From IMG/VR virus record IMGVR_UViG_3300021085_000013, positions 62,001 through 116,899 of that record: 54,899 bases of DNA; one strand, 5' to 3'. Source of the stretch: an uncultured virus (IMG/VR IMGVR_UViG_3300021085_000013) (lineage: Duplodnaviria; Heunggongvirae; Uroviricota; Caudoviricetes). Below, piece after piece: positions 17,022 to 54,899 of the stretch (position 1 is the stretch's first letter; every line of letters begins with the position of its first letter). Both the position numbers and the translations under genes were made by a program. The notes under the pieces were generated by a model. It did no database searches and was not told the origin of the DNA. It saw only the letters and a list, made by a program, of their open reading frames with translations.

Positions 17022-17291
17022 TTATCTAATTTTTTTATCGTTCTTTTTAATAGTGTAAGATTTATAACTCTTTAAATAATTCACAGAGTCTACCCAATCA
17101 GCCAACACCTCTTGAATAAACTTTATAAAATCATTCATTTGGTTATTTCTCCATATATGACCAGATATAGAATTCTTTAAAATGTTTTTTCTATAATCAT
17201 TTCCAAGATTTTTTCTATCGTCAAATACACTTTCCCTAATAGAGTATAGCCTTTCTCTTCTGCTTTTAAAAAGATTTTTAAAAATACTCAT
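17022..17291 (-). CDS. Hypothetical protein (89 aa), baseplate cluster
   Basis: ORF track. Start overlaps upstream stop. Confidence 0.5.
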   Translation of the reverse strand: MSIFKNLFKSRRERLYSIRESVFDDRKNLGNDYRKNILKNSISGHIWRNNQMNDFIKFIQEVLADWVDSVNYLKSYKSYTIKKNDKKIR

Positions 17292-19111
17292 TATATAGCT
17301 TTTCTATTTTTAGCTTGAACTTTAGCAAATATGCTATTTTTCACAGCTGGTTCATCAAAGTAAATTGAAAGAGCTGCTTTTTCCCCAGTCTTTACTGAAT
17401 CATCCACCATGTTTCCATTTTGATCTAACCATCCACCTCTAAACAATGCAACTTCTTCTTTTTCTAAAATTATATCTCCAAAAGAATCTAAATTAATTAC
17501 ATTCTCCGGAAGAGCAGCGCCTTCTTCAAAATTAACCTGTGAGGTAGTTACGTTTCTTTTAAAGAAAACCATTTTTTGTTTTCCGTTACCTATATCCTCT
17601 AATAGTGGAGTAGAAGGCGTTACGGTTACTGTTTTAGAAATATAATATCCTAATCTTCTAGCTGTTTCTTCTTTTTCAGAAGTGAATTTAACGTTAACGG
17701 AATCAATACCTTCAATACCTTCAATAATTGCTACTATATCTGATTTTGGAAGACGATCTCTTCTTGTAATATTAATTAAGTATTCAGCGACCTTAGATCT
17801 AATTTCAGATGATAGGTTATTTTTATGATATCCTTCAAAATATCTAACCTTAATATCCATTCTAAAGTATTGCGGTAAAGGATCTACTATTTTAACTTCA
17901 GTCGTTACCATCTGTCTTCCTGATTTTTCTAATAATCCCATAATTCCTTCTTTTTCTATTTCAGTAAAAAAGAATTCAGAAGTATCTAAGCTAAAATAAT
18001 CTTTATTGTTTTGTAATTTTTTAAGAGTATTAGGCAACATGAATAGATAGATAACATTATCATCGTCTAAATATCCATCGTCTGTAGTATTATATGCATC
18101 TAAATATGAAAACAAGCCGTATCTTGAAAGAAAGTGCTCATAGTTATCTGGGGTTGCTAGTACAAATGAATGTGACTGTAATGGGGCAATTAATTTTGTT
18201 AATGCAATATCTTCTGGATTTGCTCCCATTTTAGGAGCGACTGTAAACGAAAATTCTAATAATTCGTTTAAGTCATGTGTGTTTCCTAAAGAATCTGTTC
18301 CTTCAGTTTCAAACTTAAATGTCAAATCAGCTCTACCGTTTAAATTACCCATAGCACCGGAAATCTTTAAATATTCTACTTTAATCGAAGCTCCCTTTTC
18401 AGGTATTTCTCCAAATGAACCATTACCAAAATAAAGATCTAATCCACCTGTTATACCTGTTTTCACAATGTAACCCTGTGTTCCTTTCTTCATATCATAC
18501 AGTGAATCATATTTTGACCACAAATTAGAATTAACGGTTACTCTAATTTGATCATGATCAACCATTCCTTTTGTTATTACGTTAAATGACTGAAATGACT
18601 CCCCTGTTGAAGTTAATGTTTGATCTTCATATTCTCCTTGAACTACGGGAACATATATGAAATTAGAATTAGATTTGTCTAATCTAAATTGATCATTATT
18701 GGTTCTTAAAGTATACACTAGACCATTATCATTTGATTTTATAATAGCATTAGCGGGAATGTTTAAAGCATCTCCTGCAATATCATCTAATCCCTGTACA
18801 CCTAATCTCAGCTTTAATTCACCAGAAGCGGCAGCTCCTCTAAATGAATCATGTCCTGCTAATCTTGAAAGGCCATAAATTGATTCTGGGTTTTGAGCTG
18901 TTAGTATATTTTGCTCAACCGTTGAGTCTTCTATATAGAAGAAGATTAATTTTCCTATTTCTGAAATAACATCTAGTAATTGTGAAAAAGGAGAAGCGGT
19001 TGTAAATGCAGTTCCTACTGCACCATATACCCTGCTAACATACGATCTCACATCTGAGATCATTTCTCCAGTTTTAATTCTAGACGTTGATAAAAAGTTA
19101 TTATCTGCCAT
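17291..19111 (-). CDS. Baseplate wedge subunit (T4 gp6 / baseplate J-like)
   Basis: AQNPESIYGLSRLAG, LYFGNGSFGEIP, IKVEYL..SGAMGN and ATPDNYE match gp6-family patterns. Adjacent to gp25-like gene. Confidence 0.8.
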   Translation of the reverse strand: MADNNFLSTSRIKTGEMISDVRSYVSRVYGAVGTAFTTASPFSQLLDVISEIGKLIFFYIEDSTVEQNILTAQNPESIYGLSRLAGHDSFRGAAASGELKLRLGVQGLDDIAGDALNIPANAIIKSNDNGLVYTLRTNNDQFRLDKSNSNFIYVPVVQGEYEDQTLTSTGESFQSFNVITKGMVDHDQIRVTVNSNLWSKYDSLYDMKKGTQGYIVKTGITGGLDLYFGNGSFGEIPEKGASIKVEYLKISGAMGNLNGRADLTFKFETEGTDSLGNTHDLNELLEFSFTVAPKMGANPEDIALTKLIAPLQSHSFVLATPDNYEHFLSRYGLFSYLDAYNTTDDGYLDDDNVIYLFMLPNTLKKLQNNKDYFSLDTSEFFFTEIEKEGIMGLLEKSGRQMVTTEVKIVDPLPQYFRMDIKVRYFEGYHKNNLSSEIRSKVAEYLINITRRDRLPKSDIVAIIEGIEGIDSVNVKFTSEKEETARRLGYYISKTVTVTPSTPLLEDIGNGKQKMVFFKRNVTTSQVNFEEGAALPENVINLDSFGDIILEKEEVALFRGGWLDQNGNMVDDSVKTGEKAALSIYFDEPAVKNSIFAKVQAKNRKAI

Positions 19112-45993: not shown

Positions 45994-46218
45994 TTAAAAG
46001 TGTCCGTGTTCTTTAACACGCCTTATCATAAGGTAAGTATTATATGATACATTAATTTCTGCATATCCTCCTGTTATAGTAGAAGGACATGATTCCCTAG
46101 AAATCCAATAGCTAGGTGGTTCTTTAATTCTTTCTGTTATAAAGTCAAACAGCTTGTCAATGTCCATGTGATGAACCCATAAGTTCACATGCATACACGT
46201 CATGTCAGGATATGCCAT
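45994..46218 (-). CDS. Hypothetical protein (74 aa)
   Basis: ORF track. Confidence 0.45.
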   Translation of the reverse strand: MAYPDMTCMHVNLWVHHMDIDKLFDFITERIKEPPSYWISRESCPSTITGGYAEINVSYNTYLMIRRVKEHGHF

Positions 46219-46221
46219 AAT

Positions 46222-47175
46222 TTATTCTTTTATTTCGAATCGTTCACTGTCAAGTTCTATAGTTTTTTTATCTAAATCATTAGATAATTTCGTTAGAGCT
46301 TTATCAGTATCTTTGTTTACTTCTCTTCCGTAAAAGTCTTTAAATATTTTACGGTATATTTGTACAGTAGAATCATAAGGAACTCCAGGTTGAGAATTAC
46401 TTTCTATAATATACAATTTTCCTTTTTGATCTTCCATTATATCAAAACATATATATGGTAAATCTTTAAACTTATTACAGAATTTTTCTATTAGTGTTTT
46501 AAATTTTTCAGGAAGAGCTGTAACATCTCTTTTGATATATTTAAAATTCATTTCTTCTTTGCCGTCACCATCACCTGATTTTGCTTTATCATTTAATGGT
46601 TCTCTTTCCATCCAAAAGAAAGCATCTCCTTTAAAGTTAATTATTCTATGCTCTGATTTCTTATCTACAAATTCGGAATATACGTCAAATTTAGAATGAT
46701 CAGCTTTATCCCAATCTTCCTGAGATTTAAAAACCTGAATTCCAATACCTGAATGTCCTTCAGCTGGCTTTGCAATTAATGGAAAGCCAATTTCTAAAGC
46801 TTCTTTCTCGTCATGACATGTCTGTGGAATGTTTTCATCTCCATCTACTATTTTATGAAACTCTGCCTTAGATCCAGATTGCTTAATGAATTCTGGTCTA
46901 TTATATACATTTTCCTTTTTAACTAATCCTTCCTTTAAAAGTGTTTCAACTACTCCTGAATTATATGTTAATATAGGATAGTCTGTATTAATATCTATGT
47001 CTTTGTAATTGTCTTTATTAATTTGTATAAAGAAATTATCGGAAGCAAATCCCTTATAAGACCACCACCTGTGACCTGAGTCGGGATCAATTGCTAGATA
47101 AACTTTAAAAAGATCATTAGTATCTTCGTTTAGGTTTTCGTTAATAAATTGGTCGAATGATTGTATTTGCTTCAT
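46222..47175 (-). CDS. ATP-grasp ligase (RimK-like) with capsid-targeting-like N-terminus
   Basis: IPQT, FPLIAKPAEGHSGIGI, SEFV..EHR, FDIM..LYIIESNSQPG. Starts MKQIQSFDQFINE. Confidence 0.8.
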   Translation of the reverse strand: MKQIQSFDQFINENLNEDTNDLFKVYLAIDPDSGHRWWSYKGFASDNFFIQINKDNYKDIDINTDYPILTYNSGVVETLLKEGLVKKENVYNRPEFIKQSGSKAEFHKIVDGDENIPQTCHDEKEALEIGFPLIAKPAEGHSGIGIQVFKSQEDWDKADHSKFDVYSEFVDKKSEHRIINFKGDAFFWMEREPLNDKAKSGDGDGKEEMNFKYIKRDVTALPEKFKTLIEKFCNKFKDLPYICFDIMEDQKGKLYIIESNSQPGVPYDSTVQIYRKIFKDFYGREVNKDTDKALTKLSNDLDKKTIELDSERFEIKE

Positions 47176-47182
47176 ATTCTAT

Positions 47183-47800
47183 TTATCCGCTCATCTTGCA
47201 GAAACTTACAGTAATATACCTTGTTCCTGAAAAAATAGGCTTTGCACCATGTCTATGTGTAATTGCGCCTGGATGTAAAGCTGCCATTCCAACTCTAGGA
47301 GGACTAATATTTGCCTTATATAATGGGAAATAAGTTCCACCTCCTGTAAAATCTTCATTCATTCTAACAACAGTTGTTAAATGGCTATTATCATGGTGAA
47401 GAGAAAGGTGCGCTTGTGTTTCTGTAGTATACTTTACAATAAATGTTTCATCTGACATAGAATTCCACTGCTTTCCTTCTAAAGTCCAGAACCATATTCC
47501 TAATGGCCTAACAAATTCGTTAAGAACCTTTGAGTAAATTTCATTCATCCATACTTTGTCAATAAGCATGTCGGTTGTTGGATAAAATTCATGTCTATCT
47601 ACTGTCCATTCTCCTTCAGTTTCACATAGTTCAATTAGATCTTTACAAAACTGTTCTTTAAATAAAGGAAATACTAAAACGCTCGGAGCCGCTTCGTCAA
47701 CTATGAGTTCATATTCTCCTTTTCTTAAAAGAGGATCGATGTATTTGTCACACCATGCATCCCAATCACTTGCATCTAAAATTTCTACGTATTTTCCCAT
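47183..47800 (-). CDS. PLOD-like (procollagen lysyl hydroxylase) 2OG-Fe(II) dioxygenase
   Basis: FPLF..FC..LIE..E, PTTDM, FIVKY....Q..L..HHD.S, GGGT.F, HPG.ITH.H..P..GTRYITVSF. These follow the PLOD/LH catalytic domain motif series. Confidence 0.85.
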   Translation of the reverse strand: MGKYVEILDASDWDAWCDKYIDPLLRKGEYELIVDEAAPSVLVFPLFKEQFCKDLIELCETEGEWTVDRHEFYPTTDMLIDKVWMNEIYSKVLNEFVRPLGIWFWTLEGKQWNSMSDETFIVKYTTETQAHLSLHHDNSHLTTVVRMNEDFTGGGTYFPLYKANISPPRVGMAALHPGAITHRHGAKPIFSGTRYITVSFCKMSG

Positions 47801-49674
47801 TATTTTACTTTTTCTAATTTAGTTACTTTTTTTTCAATTCCTGATTTTTCAGTGTATGTTTCGTTAGCAACTCCTTCTTCTTCTCCATATCTTGACTCTG
47901 CCGATATAGGATATTCAGGACTTTCATTATATGCCCAATCTTCTATTCCTAATTCAATAAATCTTGCGTTTATTTGTTTATTATAATATTGTGCTATTGT
48001 TCTAACTCTTCTTTGAATGTCTGCTCTTGATAAATCATGGGTGTTTCTTCCACCCTGATTATTATAGAGAAATTGAATATAGCTTAGTTTAGGTATTTTA
48101 CATATCTTAGAATATAGGAAGCTTCTAATCACTAATTCAAAATCATCTGCAATTGTTAGACTTCTGTTATGTCCTCCTATTTCAAAATAAGTAGATCTTC
48201 TCCATGCTCTAACGTGATTTGGAACTCCTACAATATGTCTGATTGTTTTTGGATTAATATTCTGTTGATTAGCCGGTGACAACATTCTACCTTCATACTC
48301 TTCTTCTCTATAAGAACCATATCCTAATGCAAACCCTTCTCCATATCTTTGATTTTCCCACTCTTCATTTACCTCGGCAGTATCTCCATAAAACATACCA
48401 CAATCAGGATGTGCCTGTGCAGCATTATGTAAATCTTCTGCACATGTTTTAACCAATAAGTCATCATGGTCTAATTCTGCTAGAATATATCCTTTAGCAA
48501 GAGAACAACATCTGTATTTAGATTCTCCAATACATCCTCCTGATTTTTCTCTAAAATCATACACCTTTACTCTTGGATCTACTAGCGCAATTTCCTCTGC
48601 TATCTTTAAAGTTTTACCTCCATCTGTGGAATCATTTACTAAAACCCATTCCCAGTTATTATACGTCTGATCTCTTACGGATCTATATGTGTTCCATAAC
48701 TTTTCACCAGTATTATATATAGGCGTAAAGAATGAAATCATCTGATCATCTTCTAGGTTAGAAGGAGATAGAATAGAATTCATTGCTACGGAATATGCGG
48801 TGTTTCCTATATTTTCCGTGTTCTCAGAATTAAACCACCTTTTTCTAAATTGAAGAGGAAGAGAAGCTAGGTTAGGAAACTCTTTCCATGATTCTCCATT
48901 TGTAATAATTGCGTCAGGATTAAACGACGTAACTGTGTTAATTACTTCACTATCGTCTTCTAAGTATTTAACGTCTAATTCATCCGCTTCATACGATAAA
49001 TATTTTATAGACTTTAATTCTGGCTTAGTTTTTCCTATATAAATTATTTTAGGTATTTTTGCACTTGGTACTTTTTCTAAATAATTGTAGTGGCATAAAA
49101 CCTTGTCAATCCATACGAATGAATCACCGTGTGTTTTTAATACTTCTTCTATAAAGAAACCGTCTGCTGCATAATTTGCACTAAATGAATGAGTATCAAA
49201 TATGCTTCTATTAATAACCATCTGTGCAATGTCAATTTTCTGAAAGGCAGTATTTTCACGACTAGCTACTCTAATTTCTTGTCCGGTAAAATCTCTACCT
49301 GCAACTAATTGAGAAACGATATGAACCTGTGCAACTGGAAGATTCTTTATACTCGCTTTAATAGTTTTGTAAAAGTCTTCGTGTATAATGTTATCATCAT
49401 CCAGTAAATAGATCCAACCTGATTTGATTGTTCTAATAATATCAGAAACTTCAGGATATAATAATCCTCCTCTTTGTCCTTTTACAAAATGTAATTTGAC
49501 ATTAACAGTATCTGTTAAGTTCGAGAGAACCTCTGCATCAATATCCTTTAATGCTCCTGTATCAAATACAATGTGCCAATTTACTGTTACTCCCTTAGGC
49601 GCATTTAATACTCCTTCTTTAATTGTTAAAAGGTTACTTGTTCTGGTACACCTTGTAATAATATTAATCTTCAT
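47800..49674 (-). CDS. Bifunctional glycosyltransferase with two GT-A/GT2 domains
   Basis: N-domain IITRCTR..YLLDDDN..ADGFFI. C-domain FTPIYN..SV..QTY.NWEWVLVNDSTD..ELDHDD..ADDFEL. Confidence 0.85.
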   Translation of the reverse strand: MKINIITRCTRTSNLLTIKEGVLNAPKGVTVNWHIVFDTGALKDIDAEVLSNLTDTVNVKLHFVKGQRGGLLYPEVSDIIRTIKSGWIYLLDDDNIIHEDFYKTIKASIKNLPVAQVHIVSQLVAGRDFTGQEIRVASRENTAFQKIDIAQMVINRSIFDTHSFSANYAADGFFIEEVLKTHGDSFVWIDKVLCHYNYLEKVPSAKIPKIIYIGKTKPELKSIKYLSYEADELDVKYLEDDSEVINTVTSFNPDAIITNGESWKEFPNLASLPLQFRKRWFNSENTENIGNTAYSVAMNSILSPSNLEDDQMISFFTPIYNTGEKLWNTYRSVRDQTYNNWEWVLVNDSTDGGKTLKIAEEIALVDPRVKVYDFREKSGGCIGESKYRCCSLAKGYILAELDHDDLLVKTCAEDLHNAAQAHPDCGMFYGDTAEVNEEWENQRYGEGFALGYGSYREEEYEGRMLSPANQQNINPKTIRHIVGVPNHVRAWRRSTYFEIGGHNRSLTIADDFELVIRSFLYSKICKIPKLSYIQFLYNNQGGRNTHDLSRADIQRRVRTIAQYYNKQINARFIELGIEDWAYNESPEYPISAESRYGEEEGVANETYTEKSGIEKKVTKLEKVK

Positions 49675-49689
49675 ATTTATATTTGTTTT

Positions 49690-50622
49690 TTATACGTCAA
49701 AAAAGAACATGTGAAAAAATCTAGCATTGTCAATTGCATCTCCAAAATACTGAGTCGCAGCGTGGATATTTTTAGCATTAAACAAGACTAATCTATTATA
49801 CACATTTCCTACTTCATCTATTTTTTCAAAATTAGATCCATCGTAAAAATTCATTTCATTACTATTACCCTTGAATGCATCTATGTATGCTTGGGTTTTT
49901 CTTTTATCGTCATCGAATGTATAATCACCCGTGACTTTACTTCTATAGAACGCAGTTCCAGATGTAGGTGGAGCGTCAGGTGTTAAATATACCATTGCTG
50001 CATAAGTTTGATTATCTACGTGATAAACAATCTGCTGATCTGCTGTACAGAATTGAAATATTCCATTAGCATACCTGTCGTGATTCCAATTGAATATTGG
50101 TTTTCCTATAATTTCTTCTAGTTTTTCTTTAGTTCCATCTAAGATAAATCTTTCATTTGCTCTTTGGCCCTTGTGATAATCGGAAGGTGTAAATTCTAAA
50201 TGGTTCATTGCCCATTCTCTTACAAGGTCAGGATCATTATAAAAATTATCTACTACTATAACATCCTTTGATGTATTTGCAAAGCCTGAATGATACGATA
50301 ACCAGTGTCCGATTGGACCTATTGCAGTTTCTCCAATACTAGTATGGATGACTAGTGTTTTTAGTTTTTTATCAAAAGGAACCTCAATAGTAAATGACAT
50401 ATTCTGATTAGTAAGCTGATTTGAATATACTTCCATTACGTCTTGCCTATCACCTAAAAATTGAACTTTAAGAGGTTCATTTGACATTGAAAAGCCTAAA
50501 GCTTCTCCGCCTATTAATCCAACCCATCCATTAAGGGTATATGTTTCTGTGTTTTTAGTTACGCTTTCTACATAGAATTTTACATTCTTGTTAAACGTGT
50601 CATGTTTGATTTTATTATCCAT
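49690..50622 (-). CDS. 2OG-Fe(II) oxygenase (DUF6445-like) with extra N-terminal domain
   Basis: VVDNFY.DPD.VR, HVD, YLTPDAP..SGT.FY, NRLVLF....H, terminal R. HxD...H facial triad. Confidence 0.75.
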   Translation of the reverse strand: MDNKIKHDTFNKNVKFYVESVTKNTETYTLNGWVGLIGGEALGFSMSNEPLKVQFLGDRQDVMEVYSNQLTNQNMSFTIEVPFDKKLKTLVIHTSIGETAIGPIGHWLSYHSGFANTSKDVIVVDNFYNDPDLVREWAMNHLEFTPSDYHKGQRANERFILDGTKEKLEEIIGKPIFNWNHDRYANGIFQFCTADQQIVYHVDNQTYAAMVYLTPDAPPTSGTAFYRSKVTGDYTFDDDKRKTQAYIDAFKGNSNEMNFYDGSNFEKIDEVGNVYNRLVLFNAKNIHAATQYFGDAIDNARFFHMFFFDV

Positions 50623-50643
50623 TGATTGCGTTCTATAATATTA

Positions 50644-50712
50644 GTTATACTTAGATATTTTAAATTGTTTACTAAGTGTAATAAGATAATAAGTTATTAC
50701 AATCTATATATC
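50644..50712 (-). promoter_or_regulatory. Tandem putative promoters for the oxygenase/GT operon
   Basis: GATATATA at 50705-50712 and AAAC-N16-GTATAAC at 50644-50670. Confidence 0.6.
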
Positions 50713-50716
50713 ACAT

Positions 50717-50746
50717 AAAAAAAGGGTCCTCTTTCGAGGACCCTTT
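50717..50746 (-). terminator. Strong Rho-independent terminator after collagen fibre gene
   Basis: Minus strand AAAGGGTCCTC-GAAA-GAGGACCCTTTTTTT: perfect stem, GNRA loop, U tract. Confidence 0.9.
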
Positions 50747-50770
50747 CTAAAATTATCTTGATGATTTAAA

Positions 50771-53700
50771 TTAAGACTCTAAAGACTTAATTCTTGCTTC
50801 AAGTTCTCTAATAGCTTCGATTAAAAGACCGACCATTTTTTCATAGTCAACAGTTTTGTAAACTGTTCCGTCTTCTGCACCATCCATTAGTGGCATTTCA
50901 TGTTCTCTTACTAACATAGGTAATACCTCTTCTACTTCTTGGGCGATAAGACCTAGATCATGAAGACCTTTTCTGCTACCGCTATTCCAATCGTATTCAA
51001 CACCTCTTAACTGTAAGACTTTAGATAATGCTTCTTCAATAGTAGTCACGTTATCTTTAAGTCTCGCATCCGAGATAGAAGTTGAGTATGCAACAACATC
51101 ACCGTCAACGTGAAGGTTACCGTTACTGTATAATCTCATTTCTTCTGAGTTGTTAATGTAGAATTGTTGTAATGCACTACTGTTATTGTAGTACACATAT
51201 TCACCACCTGAGTTACCAACATACTGATTAGAATATAATCTGTAGTTAGACGTGTTAGGACCTACGGCACCTTGGTTACCCGTGTTACCTTTAGGACCAG
51301 TTGCACCAGTATAACCTTGAGCACCATTAGATCCATTAGATCCATTTGCACCAGTTAAACCTCTGTCACCTTTAGGACCCGTAGGACCAGTGTAACCTTG
51401 AGGACCTGTATTACCAGTTGTACCTTTAGGACCAGTTGAACCTGTAAGACCTTGGAAACCTTGATAACCTCTAGCACCAGTTGAACCAACAGTACCTTTA
51501 GGACCTGTAGGACCAGTGTAACCTTGAGGACCTCTAGCACCTGTGTCACCTTTAGTACCCTTAGCACCAGTTCCACCAGTTGGACCAACAGAACCTTGAG
51601 CACCAGTTGAACCAGTGTTACCTTTAGGACCTGTAGGACCAGTTGAACCAACATTACCTTTAGAACCAATAACACCTTGAGCACCTGTAGGACCAGTTGA
51701 ACCAACGTTACCTTTAGCACCTAGAGCACCTTGAGCACCTGTATTACCAGTGTTACCTTTAGGACCAGTTGAACCAACGTTACCTTTAACACCAATTATA
51801 CCTTGGAAACCTCTAGCACCACCAGCACCAGTAGAACCTTTAGGACCAACTGCACCAGTTGCACCTGTAAGACCTTGAGGACCAGTAGCACCTCTAGCAC
51901 CAGTTGCACCTTGAGCACCAGTATTACCTTTAACACCGATATCACCTTTAGTACCTTTAGCACCAGTTGAACCTGTAAAACCTTGGAAACCTTGATAACC
52001 TCTAGCACCTGTGTTACCAACGTTACCTTTAGGACCAATAGGACCAACAGAACCTTGATTACCAGTATTACCTTTAGTACCTTTAGCACCTACAGCACCT
52101 TGAGCACCAGTAGAACCATTAGAACCTTGAGAACCCGTGTTACCAACGTTACCTTTAACACCAATTATACCTTGGAAACCTCTAGCACCAGTTGAACCTG
52201 TAGAACCAACAGCACCTTGAGCACCAGTTGAACCTGTAGAACCTTTAGGACCCGTGTTACCAACGTTACCTTTGACACCAATTACACCTTGGAAACCTCT
52301 AGCACCAGTTGAACCTGTAGAACCTTTAGGACCAGTTGAACCAACATCACCTTTAAGACCAATGATACCTTGAATACCTTGATCACCTTTAGTACCTTTA
52401 GCACCAGTTCCACCAGTTGAACCTTGGAAACCTTGAGCACCTGTAGCACCTCTGTCACCTTTAGTACCTTTAACACCAGTTGCACCAGTTATACCTTGGA
52501 AACCTTGGAAACCTTGATCACCTTTAGCACCAACATTACCTTTAGTACCAGTTATACCTTGGAAACCTTGATTACCTTTAGCACCAACATCACCTTTAGT
52601 ACCTTTAGCACCAACTGTACCTTGAATACCTTGGAAACCTTGATCACCTTTAGCACCAACATTACCTTTAGTACCAGTTATACCTTGGAAACCTTGAGCA
52701 CCTGTAGCACCTCTATCACCTTTAGTACCTTTGATACCGATAACACCATTTGCACCTTGGAAACCTTGATCACCTTTAGTACCAACATTACCTTTAGCAC
52801 CAGTTATACCTTGGAAACCTTGATCACCTTTAGCACCTGTGTTACCAACGATACCTTGAATACCTCTGTCACCTTTAGCACCTTGAGCACCAGTGTTACC
52901 TTGATCACCTTTAGTACCAATGTTACCTTTAGCACCAGTTATACCTTGGAAACCTTGATCACCTTTAGCACCTGTGCTACCTTGTTTACCTTGTACACCA
53001 ATAATACCTTGTTCACCAGTATCACCTTTAGCACCTTGAGCACCTGTGTTACCAACAACACCTTTAGCACCAGTTATACCTTGGAAACCTTGATCACCTT
53101 TAGCACCTTTACCACCATCAGCTCCAGCAGCTCCAGTATTTCCTTGGAAACCTCTATCACCTTTGTCGCCTTTGTCGCCTTTTAAACCAACTTGACCTTG
53201 GAAACCTTGATCACCTTTAAGACCTTGCTCACCTCTGTCTCCATTGGCACCAGTTTTACCTTGAGCACCTTGAATACCTTGTTCACCAGTATCACCCTTA
53301 AGACCTTGGTAACCTAAATCACCTTTATCACCGGTTCTTGCGAACGTTACTATTAATTCTTCATTTGCTGAGAATACATTAGCTGCAGAAGCATATAATG
53401 TGTTACCAGTTACTTTGAAATATGTATTAATCTCCTGTAAAGAAGAGATTGTAAATAACATATATTGAGAAGAATCTAATTTATTAGAAATTCTAATATG
53501 ACCTTTAATTGTAGATGTAGAATCATCAATAGTTCTTAAGTATTGCTGAACGTCATTGTTAGTTGCATTTAAATCATCAATATTGATTTGTGTTGCACTT
53601 CCAGCAGCGTCAGTGTTAAGACTAATATATCCTGCACCCGGATCGCCTGCGGTACCAGAATTAAATTTATAGTAGAATGTTGCTCCACCAAAATTACCTT

Positions 53701-54899
53701 CAGGACCTTGGAAACCTTGATCACCTTTATCTCCTTTAATACCTCTATCACCTTTGTCACCTTTGAAACCTTGATCTCCTTGGTCACCTTTAGCTCCAGT
53801 TCTTCCTTGGAAGCCTCTTTCACCTGTATCACCTTTTAAACCAACATCTCCTTGGTCACCTTTAGCTCCAGTATCTCCTTGGTCACCGACTTTACCATCA
53901 ATACCTTGGAAACCTCTATCACCTTGATCACCTTTAAGACCTCTTTCTCCTTTGTCACCTTGGTCACCTTTGACACCAACGATACCTTGGAAACCTCTGT
54001 CACCTTTATCACCTTTAAGACCTCTGTCACCTTTAAGACCAGTATCTCCTTGGAAACCTTGGTCACCTTTAGCACCAGTATCACCTTGGTCACCTTTAGC
54101 ACCAGTATCTCCTTGGTCACCTTTAGTTCCAGTTATACCTTGGAAACCTTGATCACCTTTATCGCCTTTAAGACCTATATCACCTTTAAGACCAGTTTCA
54201 CCAGTATCTCCTTGATCACCTTTAGCTCCAGTATCTCCTTGGTCACCTTTAGTTCCAGTGTTTCCTTGGAAACCTTGAATACCTCTGTCACCTTTAAGAC
54301 CTGTTTCACCTTGTTCACCAGTGTCACCTTGATCACCTTTAAGACCTTGATCACCAGTTACACCTTGATCACCAGTTATACCTTGGAAACCTTGATCACC
54401 TTTAGTACCAACTTTACCGTCAATACCTTGATCACCTTTGTCACCTTTAAGACCAGTTTCACCATTAGCACCAGTATCTCCTTGATCACCTTTTAAACCG
54501 GTGTCACCTTGATCTCCTTTAAGACCAGTGTTTCCTTGGAAACCTTGAAGACCTCTGTCACCTTTAAGACCAGTTTCACCTTGTTCACCAGTTTCACCAG
54601 TTTCACCTTGAATACCTTGATCACCAGTTGCACCTTGATCACCAGTTATACCTTGGAAACCTTGATCACCTTTAGTACCAACTTTACCGTCAATACCTTG
54701 ATCACCTTTGTCACCTTTAAGACCAGTTTCACCATTAGCACCAGTATCTCCTTGATCACCTTTTAAACCGGTGTCACCTTGATCTCCTTTAAGACCAGTG
54801 TTTCCTTGGAAACCTTGAAGACCTCTGTCACCTTTAAGACCAGTTTCACCTTGTTCACCAGTTTCACCAGTTTCACCTTGAATACCTTGATCACCAGTT
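50771..54899 (-). CDS. Giant collagen-like fibre protein with C-terminal peptidase S74 chaperone domain, 5' end beyond window
   Basis: Frame read open upstream of the ORF-track start (53461) and still in Gly-X-Y register at the window end, giving >1370 codons. Gly-X-Y blocks at ~51258-53333 and ~53696-54899 are separated by a ~120-aa globular domain. C-terminal [37 protein letters not shown]. Confidence 0.9.
54361..54899. repeat. Exact 270-bp tandem duplication within the collagen gene
   Basis: 54361-54629 is identical to 54631-54899 by line-by-line comparison. Unit is 30 Gly-X-Y triplets. Confidence 0.9.

Follow-up and report, generated by a model that had tools for sequence, protein, structure and literature searches.

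A putative lysyl hydroxylase and a tandem-glycosyltransferase module adjoin a collagen-like tail-fibre gene in an uncultured marine phage

The stretch of DNA analyzed here, called the window throughout, is the terminal 54.9 kb (54,899 nt) of the 116,899-base virus record IMGVR_UViG_3300021085_000013, for which CheckV estimates a completeness of 42%. At the very end of the window lies a gene for a collagen-like tail fibre. It is followed on the minus strand by four genes in the order P0003, P0002, P0001 and P0005, which encode a predicted 2-oxoglutarate (2OG)-Fe(II) oxygenase of the DUF6445 family, a protein with two glycosyltransferase (GT) domains, a stand-alone lysyl hydroxylase (LH) domain of the PLOD type, and an ATP-grasp protein, respectively. 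A preliminary description of this DNA had reported the fibre gene and a three-gene enzyme unit behind it, and all of these features were found to be present. The coordinates are collected in Table 1.

Table 1. Features of the fibre gene and the adjoining enzyme genes (aa, amino acids; X and Y, second and third positions of the G-X-Y triplet).
Feature	Position	Strand	Evidence and remarks
Collagen-like tail-fibre gene	50771-54898	-	Pfam Collagen E 1.4e-169; Peptidase_S74; PHROG tail-fibre families
Collagen segment 1, aa 2-406	53681..54895	-	135 triplets, Lys at Y in 35
Non-collagen interruption, aa 407-522	53333..53680	-	Homologous stretch in the fibres of loci L033 and L061
Collagen segment 2, aa 523-1215	51254..53332	-	231 triplets; Lys at Y 53, Pro at X 20
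Intramolecular chaperone domain Peptidase_S74 (PF13884), aa 1276-1330, fibre C-terminus	50909..51073	-	E 6e-16
P0003, N-terminal beta-sandwich (aa 1-105) and DUF6445 with predicted 2OG-Fe(II) oxygenase fold, 310 aa	49690..50622	-	Pfam, AlphaFold, Foldseek
P0002, putative tandem GT-A glycosyltransferase, 624 aa; N-domain ~aa 1-200, C-domain GT2 ~aa 309-535	47800..49674	-	Pfam, NCBIfam, Foldseek
P0001, putative stand-alone PLOD-type LH domain, 205 aa	47183..47800	-	PDB phmmer, profile, invariant residues
P0005, RimK/TTL/D-Ala-D-Ala-ligase-like ATP-grasp protein	46222..47175	-	Weak Pfam and NCBIfam ATP-grasp matches; synteny

The open reading frame (ORF) of the fibre is open at its 5′ end because the window ends at the end of the virus record, and 1375 aa of it are visible. 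It measures about 1850 aa in contigs that are 92–100% identical, and the full ORF in one near-identical contig (L005:1470-7028) encodes 1853 aa with only ~10 non-collagen residues at the N-terminus. The window fibre and the L005 fibre share 87.5% identity with indels and length differences, and the repeat region is therefore variable. As the LH, GT and DUF6445 genes of L005-type contigs are 99–100% identical to those of the window, the collagen repeats appear to be evolving much faster than the enzymes. The interruption domain is 49% identical to its counterpart in the L033 fibre and 42% to that in the L061 fibre. When runs of at least three are counted, the fibre contains 369 G-X-Y triplets, of which 28 are GFQ. 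The Y position is occupied by Gln in 103, by Thr in 95 and by Lys in 88 of these triplets (a Lys share of 0.23), so that the visible part of the fibre presents 88 X-Lys-Gly sites. Lys is found at X five times; Pro is found 21 times at X and once at Y. This is in good agreement with the preliminary description, which had noted Lys very often at Y and Pro almost only at X. The G-X-Y repeats, the PF13884 domain and the PHROG matches together identify the product, at the level of sequence, as a phage tail fibre with a predicted collagen triple helix and an intramolecular chaperone. Fibres combining collagen and S74 domains are described for polinton-like viruses in the accessible part of PMC12220804, and most prokaryotic collagens are unmodified according to the accessible part of PMC8968730.

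The P0001 protein was compared with all PDB sequences using phmmer. Its best match was the LH domain of human LH3/PLOD3 (aa 16-201 against chain positions 517-713, E 2e-25), followed over its whole length by the LH domain of mimivirus L230 (6ax6, E 1.5e-18), and the best prolyl 4-hydroxylase (P4H) scored E 0.29. A profile built from 29 homologues gave the same ranking, with LH3 at 2.2e-40, L230 at 2e-37, the best P4H at 2.6e-4 and a prolyl 3-hydroxylase at 0.03. The P0001 motifs ‘LHHD’, ‘THRH’ and ‘GTRY’ align to ‘PHHD’, ‘THYH’ and ‘GTRY’ of LH3, and the predicted Fe triad H135, D137 and H184 as well as the 2OG-binding R194 are invariant in the 29 homologues. Thus, P0001 is classified by its sequence as a PLOD-type lysyl hydroxylase, as had been proposed for this gene. 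Pfam alone does not assign P0001 to this family, as its only match, OGFOD2-like, scores 21 bits and falls under the 31-bit cut-off. PHROGs places it in a generic 2OG oxygenase family, and an NCBIfam search matched neither P0001 nor P0003.

P0003 matches Pfam DUF6445 (E 4e-15, 56.7 bits, cut-off 24), and its residues H201, D203, H287 and R301 do not vary across 26 sequences. Searches of the PDB by sequence, using either the single sequence or a profile, yielded chance-level matches only. The AlphaFold (AF2) model has a predicted local distance difference test (pLDDT) score of 87, and a Foldseek search with its C-terminal domain retrieved HygX, OGFOD1, a bacterial P4H, PHD2 and Tpa1 with probability 1.0 and E 6e-5 to 1e-3, at template modelling (TM) scores of about 0.4–0.5 on the target. 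The modelled fold and the conserved HxD…H motif point to P0003 as the second 2OG-Fe(II) oxygenase that the preliminary description had suggested. In view of the oxygenase fold we set aside the PHROG label ‘minor coat protein’ for this gene. The beta-sandwich of aa 1-105 is modelled at a pLDDT above 90 and has no family match; it may serve to bind the substrate or a carbohydrate.

The single chain of P0002 contains two GT-A domains, both of which carry a DxD-type motif, in accordance with the double glycosyltransferase described earlier. Residues 314-455 match Pfam GT2 (E 3e-18), residues 23-107 match an HpsE-type GT in NCBIfam, and both DDD 92-94 and the D402-x-D404-D405 motif (D402, D404, D405) are invariant in 28 sequences. 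The model (pLDDT 74) found K4CP chondroitin polymerase (2z86, E 6e-17), LARGE1 (7zvj, E 2e-11) and Pasteurella heparosan synthase 2 (8vh8, E 3.5e-11) in Foldseek alignments spanning both domains. These proteins also have two GT-A domains, but the likeness is in fold alone: identities are 10–14%, and TM-scores are 0.22–0.31, so that the arrangement either differs or is poorly modelled. The preliminary description spoke of split enzymes, but a reading of these genes as a split PLOD was not borne out: no relation of P0002 to GT25 or the PLOD GT domain could be detected. No match to Pfam GT25 or GT_PLOD (PF25342) was obtained for P0002, even at E 10 for its N-half, BLASTP against P0006, a GT25+GT_PLOD+LH protein, gave nothing better than E 0.038, and a Pfam scan found no GT25 or PLOD-GT domain in the window.

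The genes are tightly spaced. The fibre gene and P0003 are separated by 148 bp, P0003 and P0002 by 15 bp, and P0001 and P0005 by 7 bp, and the stop codon of P0002 and the start codon of P0001 share a TAATG overlap, by which P0001 is predicted to be translationally coupled to P0002. Between 45900 and 51000, promoter-like sites (26 vs. 26.5 expected) and terminator-like sites (2 vs. 1.6 expected) occur at about the expected numbers. Six metatranscriptome-labelled runs contain 62–81% of the sampled words of 46222-51500, and in four of these the contigs reproduce the five genes with ≥95% identity; this documents presence in RNA libraries, in which DNA carry-over is possible. One contig of 4.9 kb runs from the ATP-grasp gene through P0003. 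No contig in the four metatranscriptome runs crosses ~50687-50802, the junction between the fibre gene and P0003, and contig depths differ on either side, although contigs cannot rank genes. A complex prediction for P0002 and P0001 scored 0.00 in two runs whose controls were not folded, a score that speaks neither for nor against binding.

The explanation that we favor overall, and regard as probably correct, is that these genes form an operon that post-translationally modifies the adjacent tail fibre. With Fe(II), 2-oxoglutarate and O2, the LH would hydroxylate the Y-position Lys of X-Lys-Gly to hydroxylysine, in the cytoplasm of the infected cell and on unfolded chains ahead of trimerisation. 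Sugars would be added by P0002, through one of its GT-A domains or through both, and the acceptor would be hydroxylysine, Thr, or a site that P0003 has prepared; the DUF6445 oxygenase possibly acts on another fibre residue; and the S74 domain would afterwards drive trimerisation. The parts of this proposal are not equally firm. P0001 is, from its sequence, very probably an active PLOD-family hydroxylase, and Lys of the fibre is its likely substrate. That the hydroxylysine so formed, and not some other acceptor, receives the sugar from P0002 is a tentative assignment that we consider less likely than not. A disaccharide built by the two GT domains, as suggested in the preliminary description, is equally conjectural. 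As to the purpose, it is speculation that the modification provides helix stability without hydroxyproline, shielding or adhesion.

To place the LH domain among its relatives, 1.84 billion cluster representatives were searched for P0001-type LH domains, which gave 2173 relatives at E ≤ 1e-3; a threshold of 1e-10 left 592 of them, and one of 1e-30 left 77. Among the best 148, 57 are at most 260 aa long and 91 are longer. A Pfam census took in the first 78 of these 91 long (>260 aa) relatives and left out 13. In 56 of the 78, the chain also has a GT domain preceding the LH domain: 47 have GT25, the family to which the animal collagen galactosyltransferases belong, 16 have PLOD-GT, and many have GT1/GT4. 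Three cultured phages carry GT25, PLOD-GT and LH in one chain annotated as a hypothetical protein, namely S-CAM9 gp218 (YP_009322466.1), its homologue in S-PRM1 (AXN58392.1) and CRP-6 gp58 (QBQ72782.1). Their LH domains are ~30% identical to P0001 and have Lys where P0001 has the 2OG-binding Arg. The genes for these fusions lie next to tail-fibre genes whose collagen runs are rich in G-X-K, for example GPKGEKGQKGEKGQK, and two additional PF13640 oxygenases are encoded in between the fusion and fibre genes of S-CAM9 (L004, NC_031922.1 34413-36254). The CRP-6 gp58 locus is L002 (MK613348.1), and the cultured-phage loci also include L001. Two other relatives show fusions of a different kind, P0346 to Peptidase_C39 (607 aa) and P0377 to GT25 and TPR repeats (570 aa).

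A scan of IMG/VR with an LH alignment gave 212 confirmed loci. The best 80 of the 212 were kept; 79 are distinct, and clustering at 85% identity groups them into 20 clusters. Eight of the 20 have a collagen ORF on the same strand no more than 10 kb upstream, usually one to three genes off. These observations support a link, across phages, of the LH domain to glycosyltransferases and Lys-rich collagen fibres. The other twelve clusters are taken up below.

The composition of the fibres is in line with such a link. As controls served the collagens among the first 76 loci listed with at least 12 consecutive GGN-N6 repeats, some giant-virus bins included, and medians were taken after dereplication. 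The median share of triplets with Lys at Y was 0.29 in LH-linked fibres (n = 9, 7 at ≥0.2; fibres beside an LH often have 18–58%), 0.14 in DUF6445-linked fibres without LH (n = 53) and 0.008 in the controls (n = 43, 4 at ≥0.2), a level that the window fibre with its 0.23 exceeds. Lys at X was about 0 in all three sets. The LH profile weakly matched one of the 76 control loci listed (E 9e-14), and the protein concerned is generic P4H-like. In two giant-virus bins (L108, L116) we observed collagen ORFs with Lys at Y in 18–26% of triplets, which fits the mimivirus precedent described below; no LH was found within the fetched flanks of these bins.

The other two enzymes are far more widespread than the LH. 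At E ≤ 1e-5, same-length homologues number 595 for P0003, at least 2046 for P0002 and 88 for the LH. We fetched 80 loci with a DUF6445 alignment. The tandem GT was present in 79 of the 80, mostly directly adjacent and 3 kb off in five, and 68 of the 80 had a collagen ORF in tight same-strand placement. An LH was found in 16 of the 80, all of the window type.

These 80 loci also provide the first of the observations that weigh against the reading favored here. No LH is present in any of the 64 DUF6445 loci outside the window type (64/64). Several of them are close relatives of the window: L245 has DUF6445 and GT proteins 94–95% identical to those of the window, L249-251 are at 74% (DUF6445) and 89% (GT), and L253-254 at 66% and 77%. 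All of these have the ATP-grasp gene directly after the GT gene, at a gap of at most 45 bp. Fibres of the LH-less close relatives retain a Y=Lys share of 0.15–0.28. A search for LH across five whole LH-less contigs found none; among these is a 171-kb genome that is complete and has terminal repeats, and its collagens reach a Y=Lys share of 0.27. Lys at Y is therefore independent of the LH. In addition, the GT domains of P0002 are unrelated to the GT families fused to LH elsewhere, and the conserved partner of P0002 is DUF6445, not LH. Given the absence of LH from these relatives and from all other loci outside the window type, the LH is best described, on the comparison of gene content, as an accessory gene inserted into a pre-existing module. 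This module would consist of the collagen fibre, the DUF6445 oxygenase and the tandem GT, with or without the ATP-grasp protein, and the LH as an addition in the lineage of the window, placed between the GT and ATP-grasp genes. The interpretation in the preliminary description is thus only partly supported, since P0003 and P0002 form a module of their own.

Such an arrangement raises the question of whether the two parts act along two separate routes, the LH product being left unglycosylated or used by a GT encoded elsewhere, and DUF6445 and the GT modifying other positions (Thr/Ser or a residue hydroxylated by DUF6445). The LH-free loci speak for this, as they include fibres with a Y=Lys share of 0, and so does the finding that LHs elsewhere carry GT25, GT4 or PLOD-GT domains of their own. 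The DUF6445-linked fibres also have a signature of a different kind. Among the 53 DUF6445-linked collagen ORFs (loci L233-L312), 34 have Gly-Phe-Gln or Gly-Tyr-Gln as ≥3% of their triplets vs. 1 of 43 controls, and only the window type reaches this level among the nine LH-linked ORFs, kinship not being factored into these counts; at Y, what the DUF6445-linked fibres have in common is Thr and Gln and not Lys. On the other side stand the TAATG coupling of P0002 and P0001 and the lack of any other GT gene near the LH in the window. Moreover, DUF6445 is fused to LH in one of the 78 long relatives (P0368) and again in L071, and in another lineage (L076, L081-L083) the GT4-LH fusions directly adjoin a GT2 sharing 40% identity with the C-half of P0002. 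These two findings speak for a functional connection of the modules. We regard two separate routes as rather unlikely. A more elaborate variant would make DUF6445 and the tandem GT a hitherto unrecognised phage system that hydroxylates a fibre residue marked by Gly-Phe/Tyr-Gln and polymerises a repeating disaccharide on it, giving a kind of ‘proteoglycan’, with the captured LH adding dozens of sites and the ATP-grasp protein amidating the glycan or protein. In that case the GTs in the tail-fibre regions of marine myophages would modify the virion and not the host. We consider this variant clearly unlikely.

A further set of observations counts against the modification of fibre Lys as such, and would fit a P0001 that acts on another target, either a different X-Lys-Gly protein or a non-protein substrate, beside a fibre that is Lys-rich by coincidence. 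Lys-Gly-Asp pairing stabilises collagen triple helices electrostatically through salt bridges, and 57 of the 88 Y-position Lys residues of the fibre are directly followed by Gly-Asp, which gives these motifs a structural rationale of their own. Lys-rich fibres without an LH, as described above, point in the same direction. In 12 of the 20 LH clusters there is no collagen ORF within 10 kb. Most of the LHs concerned are fused as GT25+LH or GT4+GT25+LH, and in the largest of these clusters the LH adjoins gp23 capsid and PhoH genes. When five such contigs were searched over their whole length, three that are 39–52% complete had no collagen ORF at all. The other two (82% and 55% complete) hold collagen genes elsewhere with a Y=Lys share of 0.28–0.52, so contigs lacking an adjacent collagen gene can still hold a Lys-rich one. 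The similarity of P0001 is also specific to collagen LHs, by >30 orders of magnitude over other 2OG oxygenases. Finally, LH-linked fibres have a higher Y=Lys share than either comparison set (p 1e-5 to 3e-4), with the reservation that these rank tests were computed without regard to the kinship of the phages and overstate the significance. We therefore judge another target of P0001 to be quite improbable.

It might also be argued that the enzymes target the host surface, for O-antigen or capsule conversion or phage exclusion, and that they lie beside the fibre because this is a variable ‘host recognition cluster’. GTs in the tail-fibre regions of pelagimyophages are read as modifiers of the host O-antigen in the accessible part of PMC7029224. 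P0002 itself invites this view, as it resembles K4CP and heparosan synthase and, by Foldseek, also the teichoic-acid GTs TarP and RmlT, and source databases label its homologues ‘O-antigen biosynthesis protein’. What a role at the host surface leaves unexplained is the presence of a PLOD-type protein hydroxylase with its many GT fusions, the same-strand placement after collagen genes at most DUF6445 loci, and the fibre-composition signatures that track the enzymes. The secondary structure of the P0002 model contains no membrane segment, although no dedicated membrane predictor was applied. Such a role is improbable in our estimation, and modification of the fibre accounts better for these features.

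The closest known system is that of Acanthamoeba polyphaga mimivirus. Its L230 protein (6ax6, 9nev) has, like P0001, a virus-encoded PLOD-type LH domain, and the virus, like the phage of the window, encodes Pro-poor collagen-like proteins with Lys at Y. According to the accessible part of PMC9614988, the activities of L230 have been shown experimentally, hydroxylysine was found in virions, the N-terminal domain belongs to the GT25 family, and an Fe-stabilised homodimer is required for activity. L230 is, however, a single chain of 895 aa with a GLT25D1-like GT, whereas P0001 stands alone beside an unrelated tandem GT-A protein, and L230 comes from a giant virus of a eukaryote, whereas P0001 comes from a tailed phage whose putative substrate is a tail fibre made in the bacterial cytoplasm. 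A similar comparison holds for human LH3/PLOD3 (6fxk, 8one, 8zgc), the best sequence match of P0001, to which the HxD…H and Arg residues align. The X-Lys-Gly context of the substrates of human LH3 and PLOD1/2 is also present in the window fibre. P0001 differs from LH3 in having no GT or accessory domains in its chain, which consists of the LH domain only and so departs from the layout of animal PLOD and L230, and in lacking an endoplasmic reticulum or signal peptide context. The GT25 and PLOD-GT domains that are fused to LH in other phages are absent from the window.

Modification of bacterial collagen-like proteins has been predicted before. In the accessible part of their paper, Iyer et al. 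(2010; PMC2938197) propose that 2OG dioxygenases encoded beside bacterial collagen-like or tail-collar proteins modify them, predict hydroxylation and sulfation for collagen-like proteins from bacteria, and read cyanophage dioxygenase arrays as secondary-metabolite genes. The systems in that part of the paper are beta-hydroxylase/PhyH-type enzymes with sulfotransferases in bacteria, and include no PLOD-type LH or coupling to phage GTs. The preliminary description knew of no characterised bacteriophage example, and we likewise found no lysyl hydroxylase, hydroxylysine or collagen glycosylation described for a bacteriophage in the open full-text literature (subscription-only papers aside); the accessible part of PMC12014285, too, contains nothing on the subject. 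New here are the stand-alone, variably present LH, the independent module of DUF6445 and tandem GT, and the control comparisons.

Hydroxylation and glycosylation of collagen Lys are regarded as a chemistry of animals and mimivirus. A phage version operating in the bacterial cytoplasm would, if true, widen this evolutionary range and bear on the origin of the PLOD and GT25 enzymes. It would also mean that tail fibres, which are host-range determinants, bear enzymatic decorations invisible to genome annotation, and would challenge the published reading of the GTs in marine-phage ‘host recognition clusters’ as modifiers of the host O-antigen. From a practical point of view, small (205 aa), soluble and prokaryote-compatible enzymes would become available for hydroxylated recombinant collagens. 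The presence and absence of the LH among close relatives is a natural experiment on what the modification does, and the isolates S-CAM9, S-PRM1 and CRP-6 would permit a direct test.

The last gene of the unit, P0005, has viral RimK/TTL/R2K clusters as its atlas neighbours. Copies ~30% identical to it lie 1–3 kb downstream in more distant DUF6445 loci, and it is conceivable that P0005, as a third enzyme, also modifies the fibre or its glycan.

The window has a low G+C content of about 32%, and nearly all of its long ORFs are on the minus strand. Matches to PHROGs include baseplate wedge, hub and sheath-like genes, which mark a structural region of the myovirus type, and also PhoH, Hsp20, dCMP deaminase and a 3′-5′ exonuclease. 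A megablast search of 46000-54899 against named phages gave 0 matches, and contigs with 92–100% identical genes extend to 178 kb. The baseplate wedge protein (17291-19111, minus strand) is nearest to that of an uncultured 462-kb phage (42% identity), followed by those of Lak megaphages (Prevotella) and of Tenacibaculum, Chryseobacterium and Flavobacterium phages. Judged from the structural genes, the contig sizes and these affinities, the source is an uncultured marine jumbo-type myophage. The same baseplate affinities led us to reject an identity as a pelagimyophage. The relationship to Lak megaphages and phages of Flavobacteriia hints at a possible Bacteroidota host.

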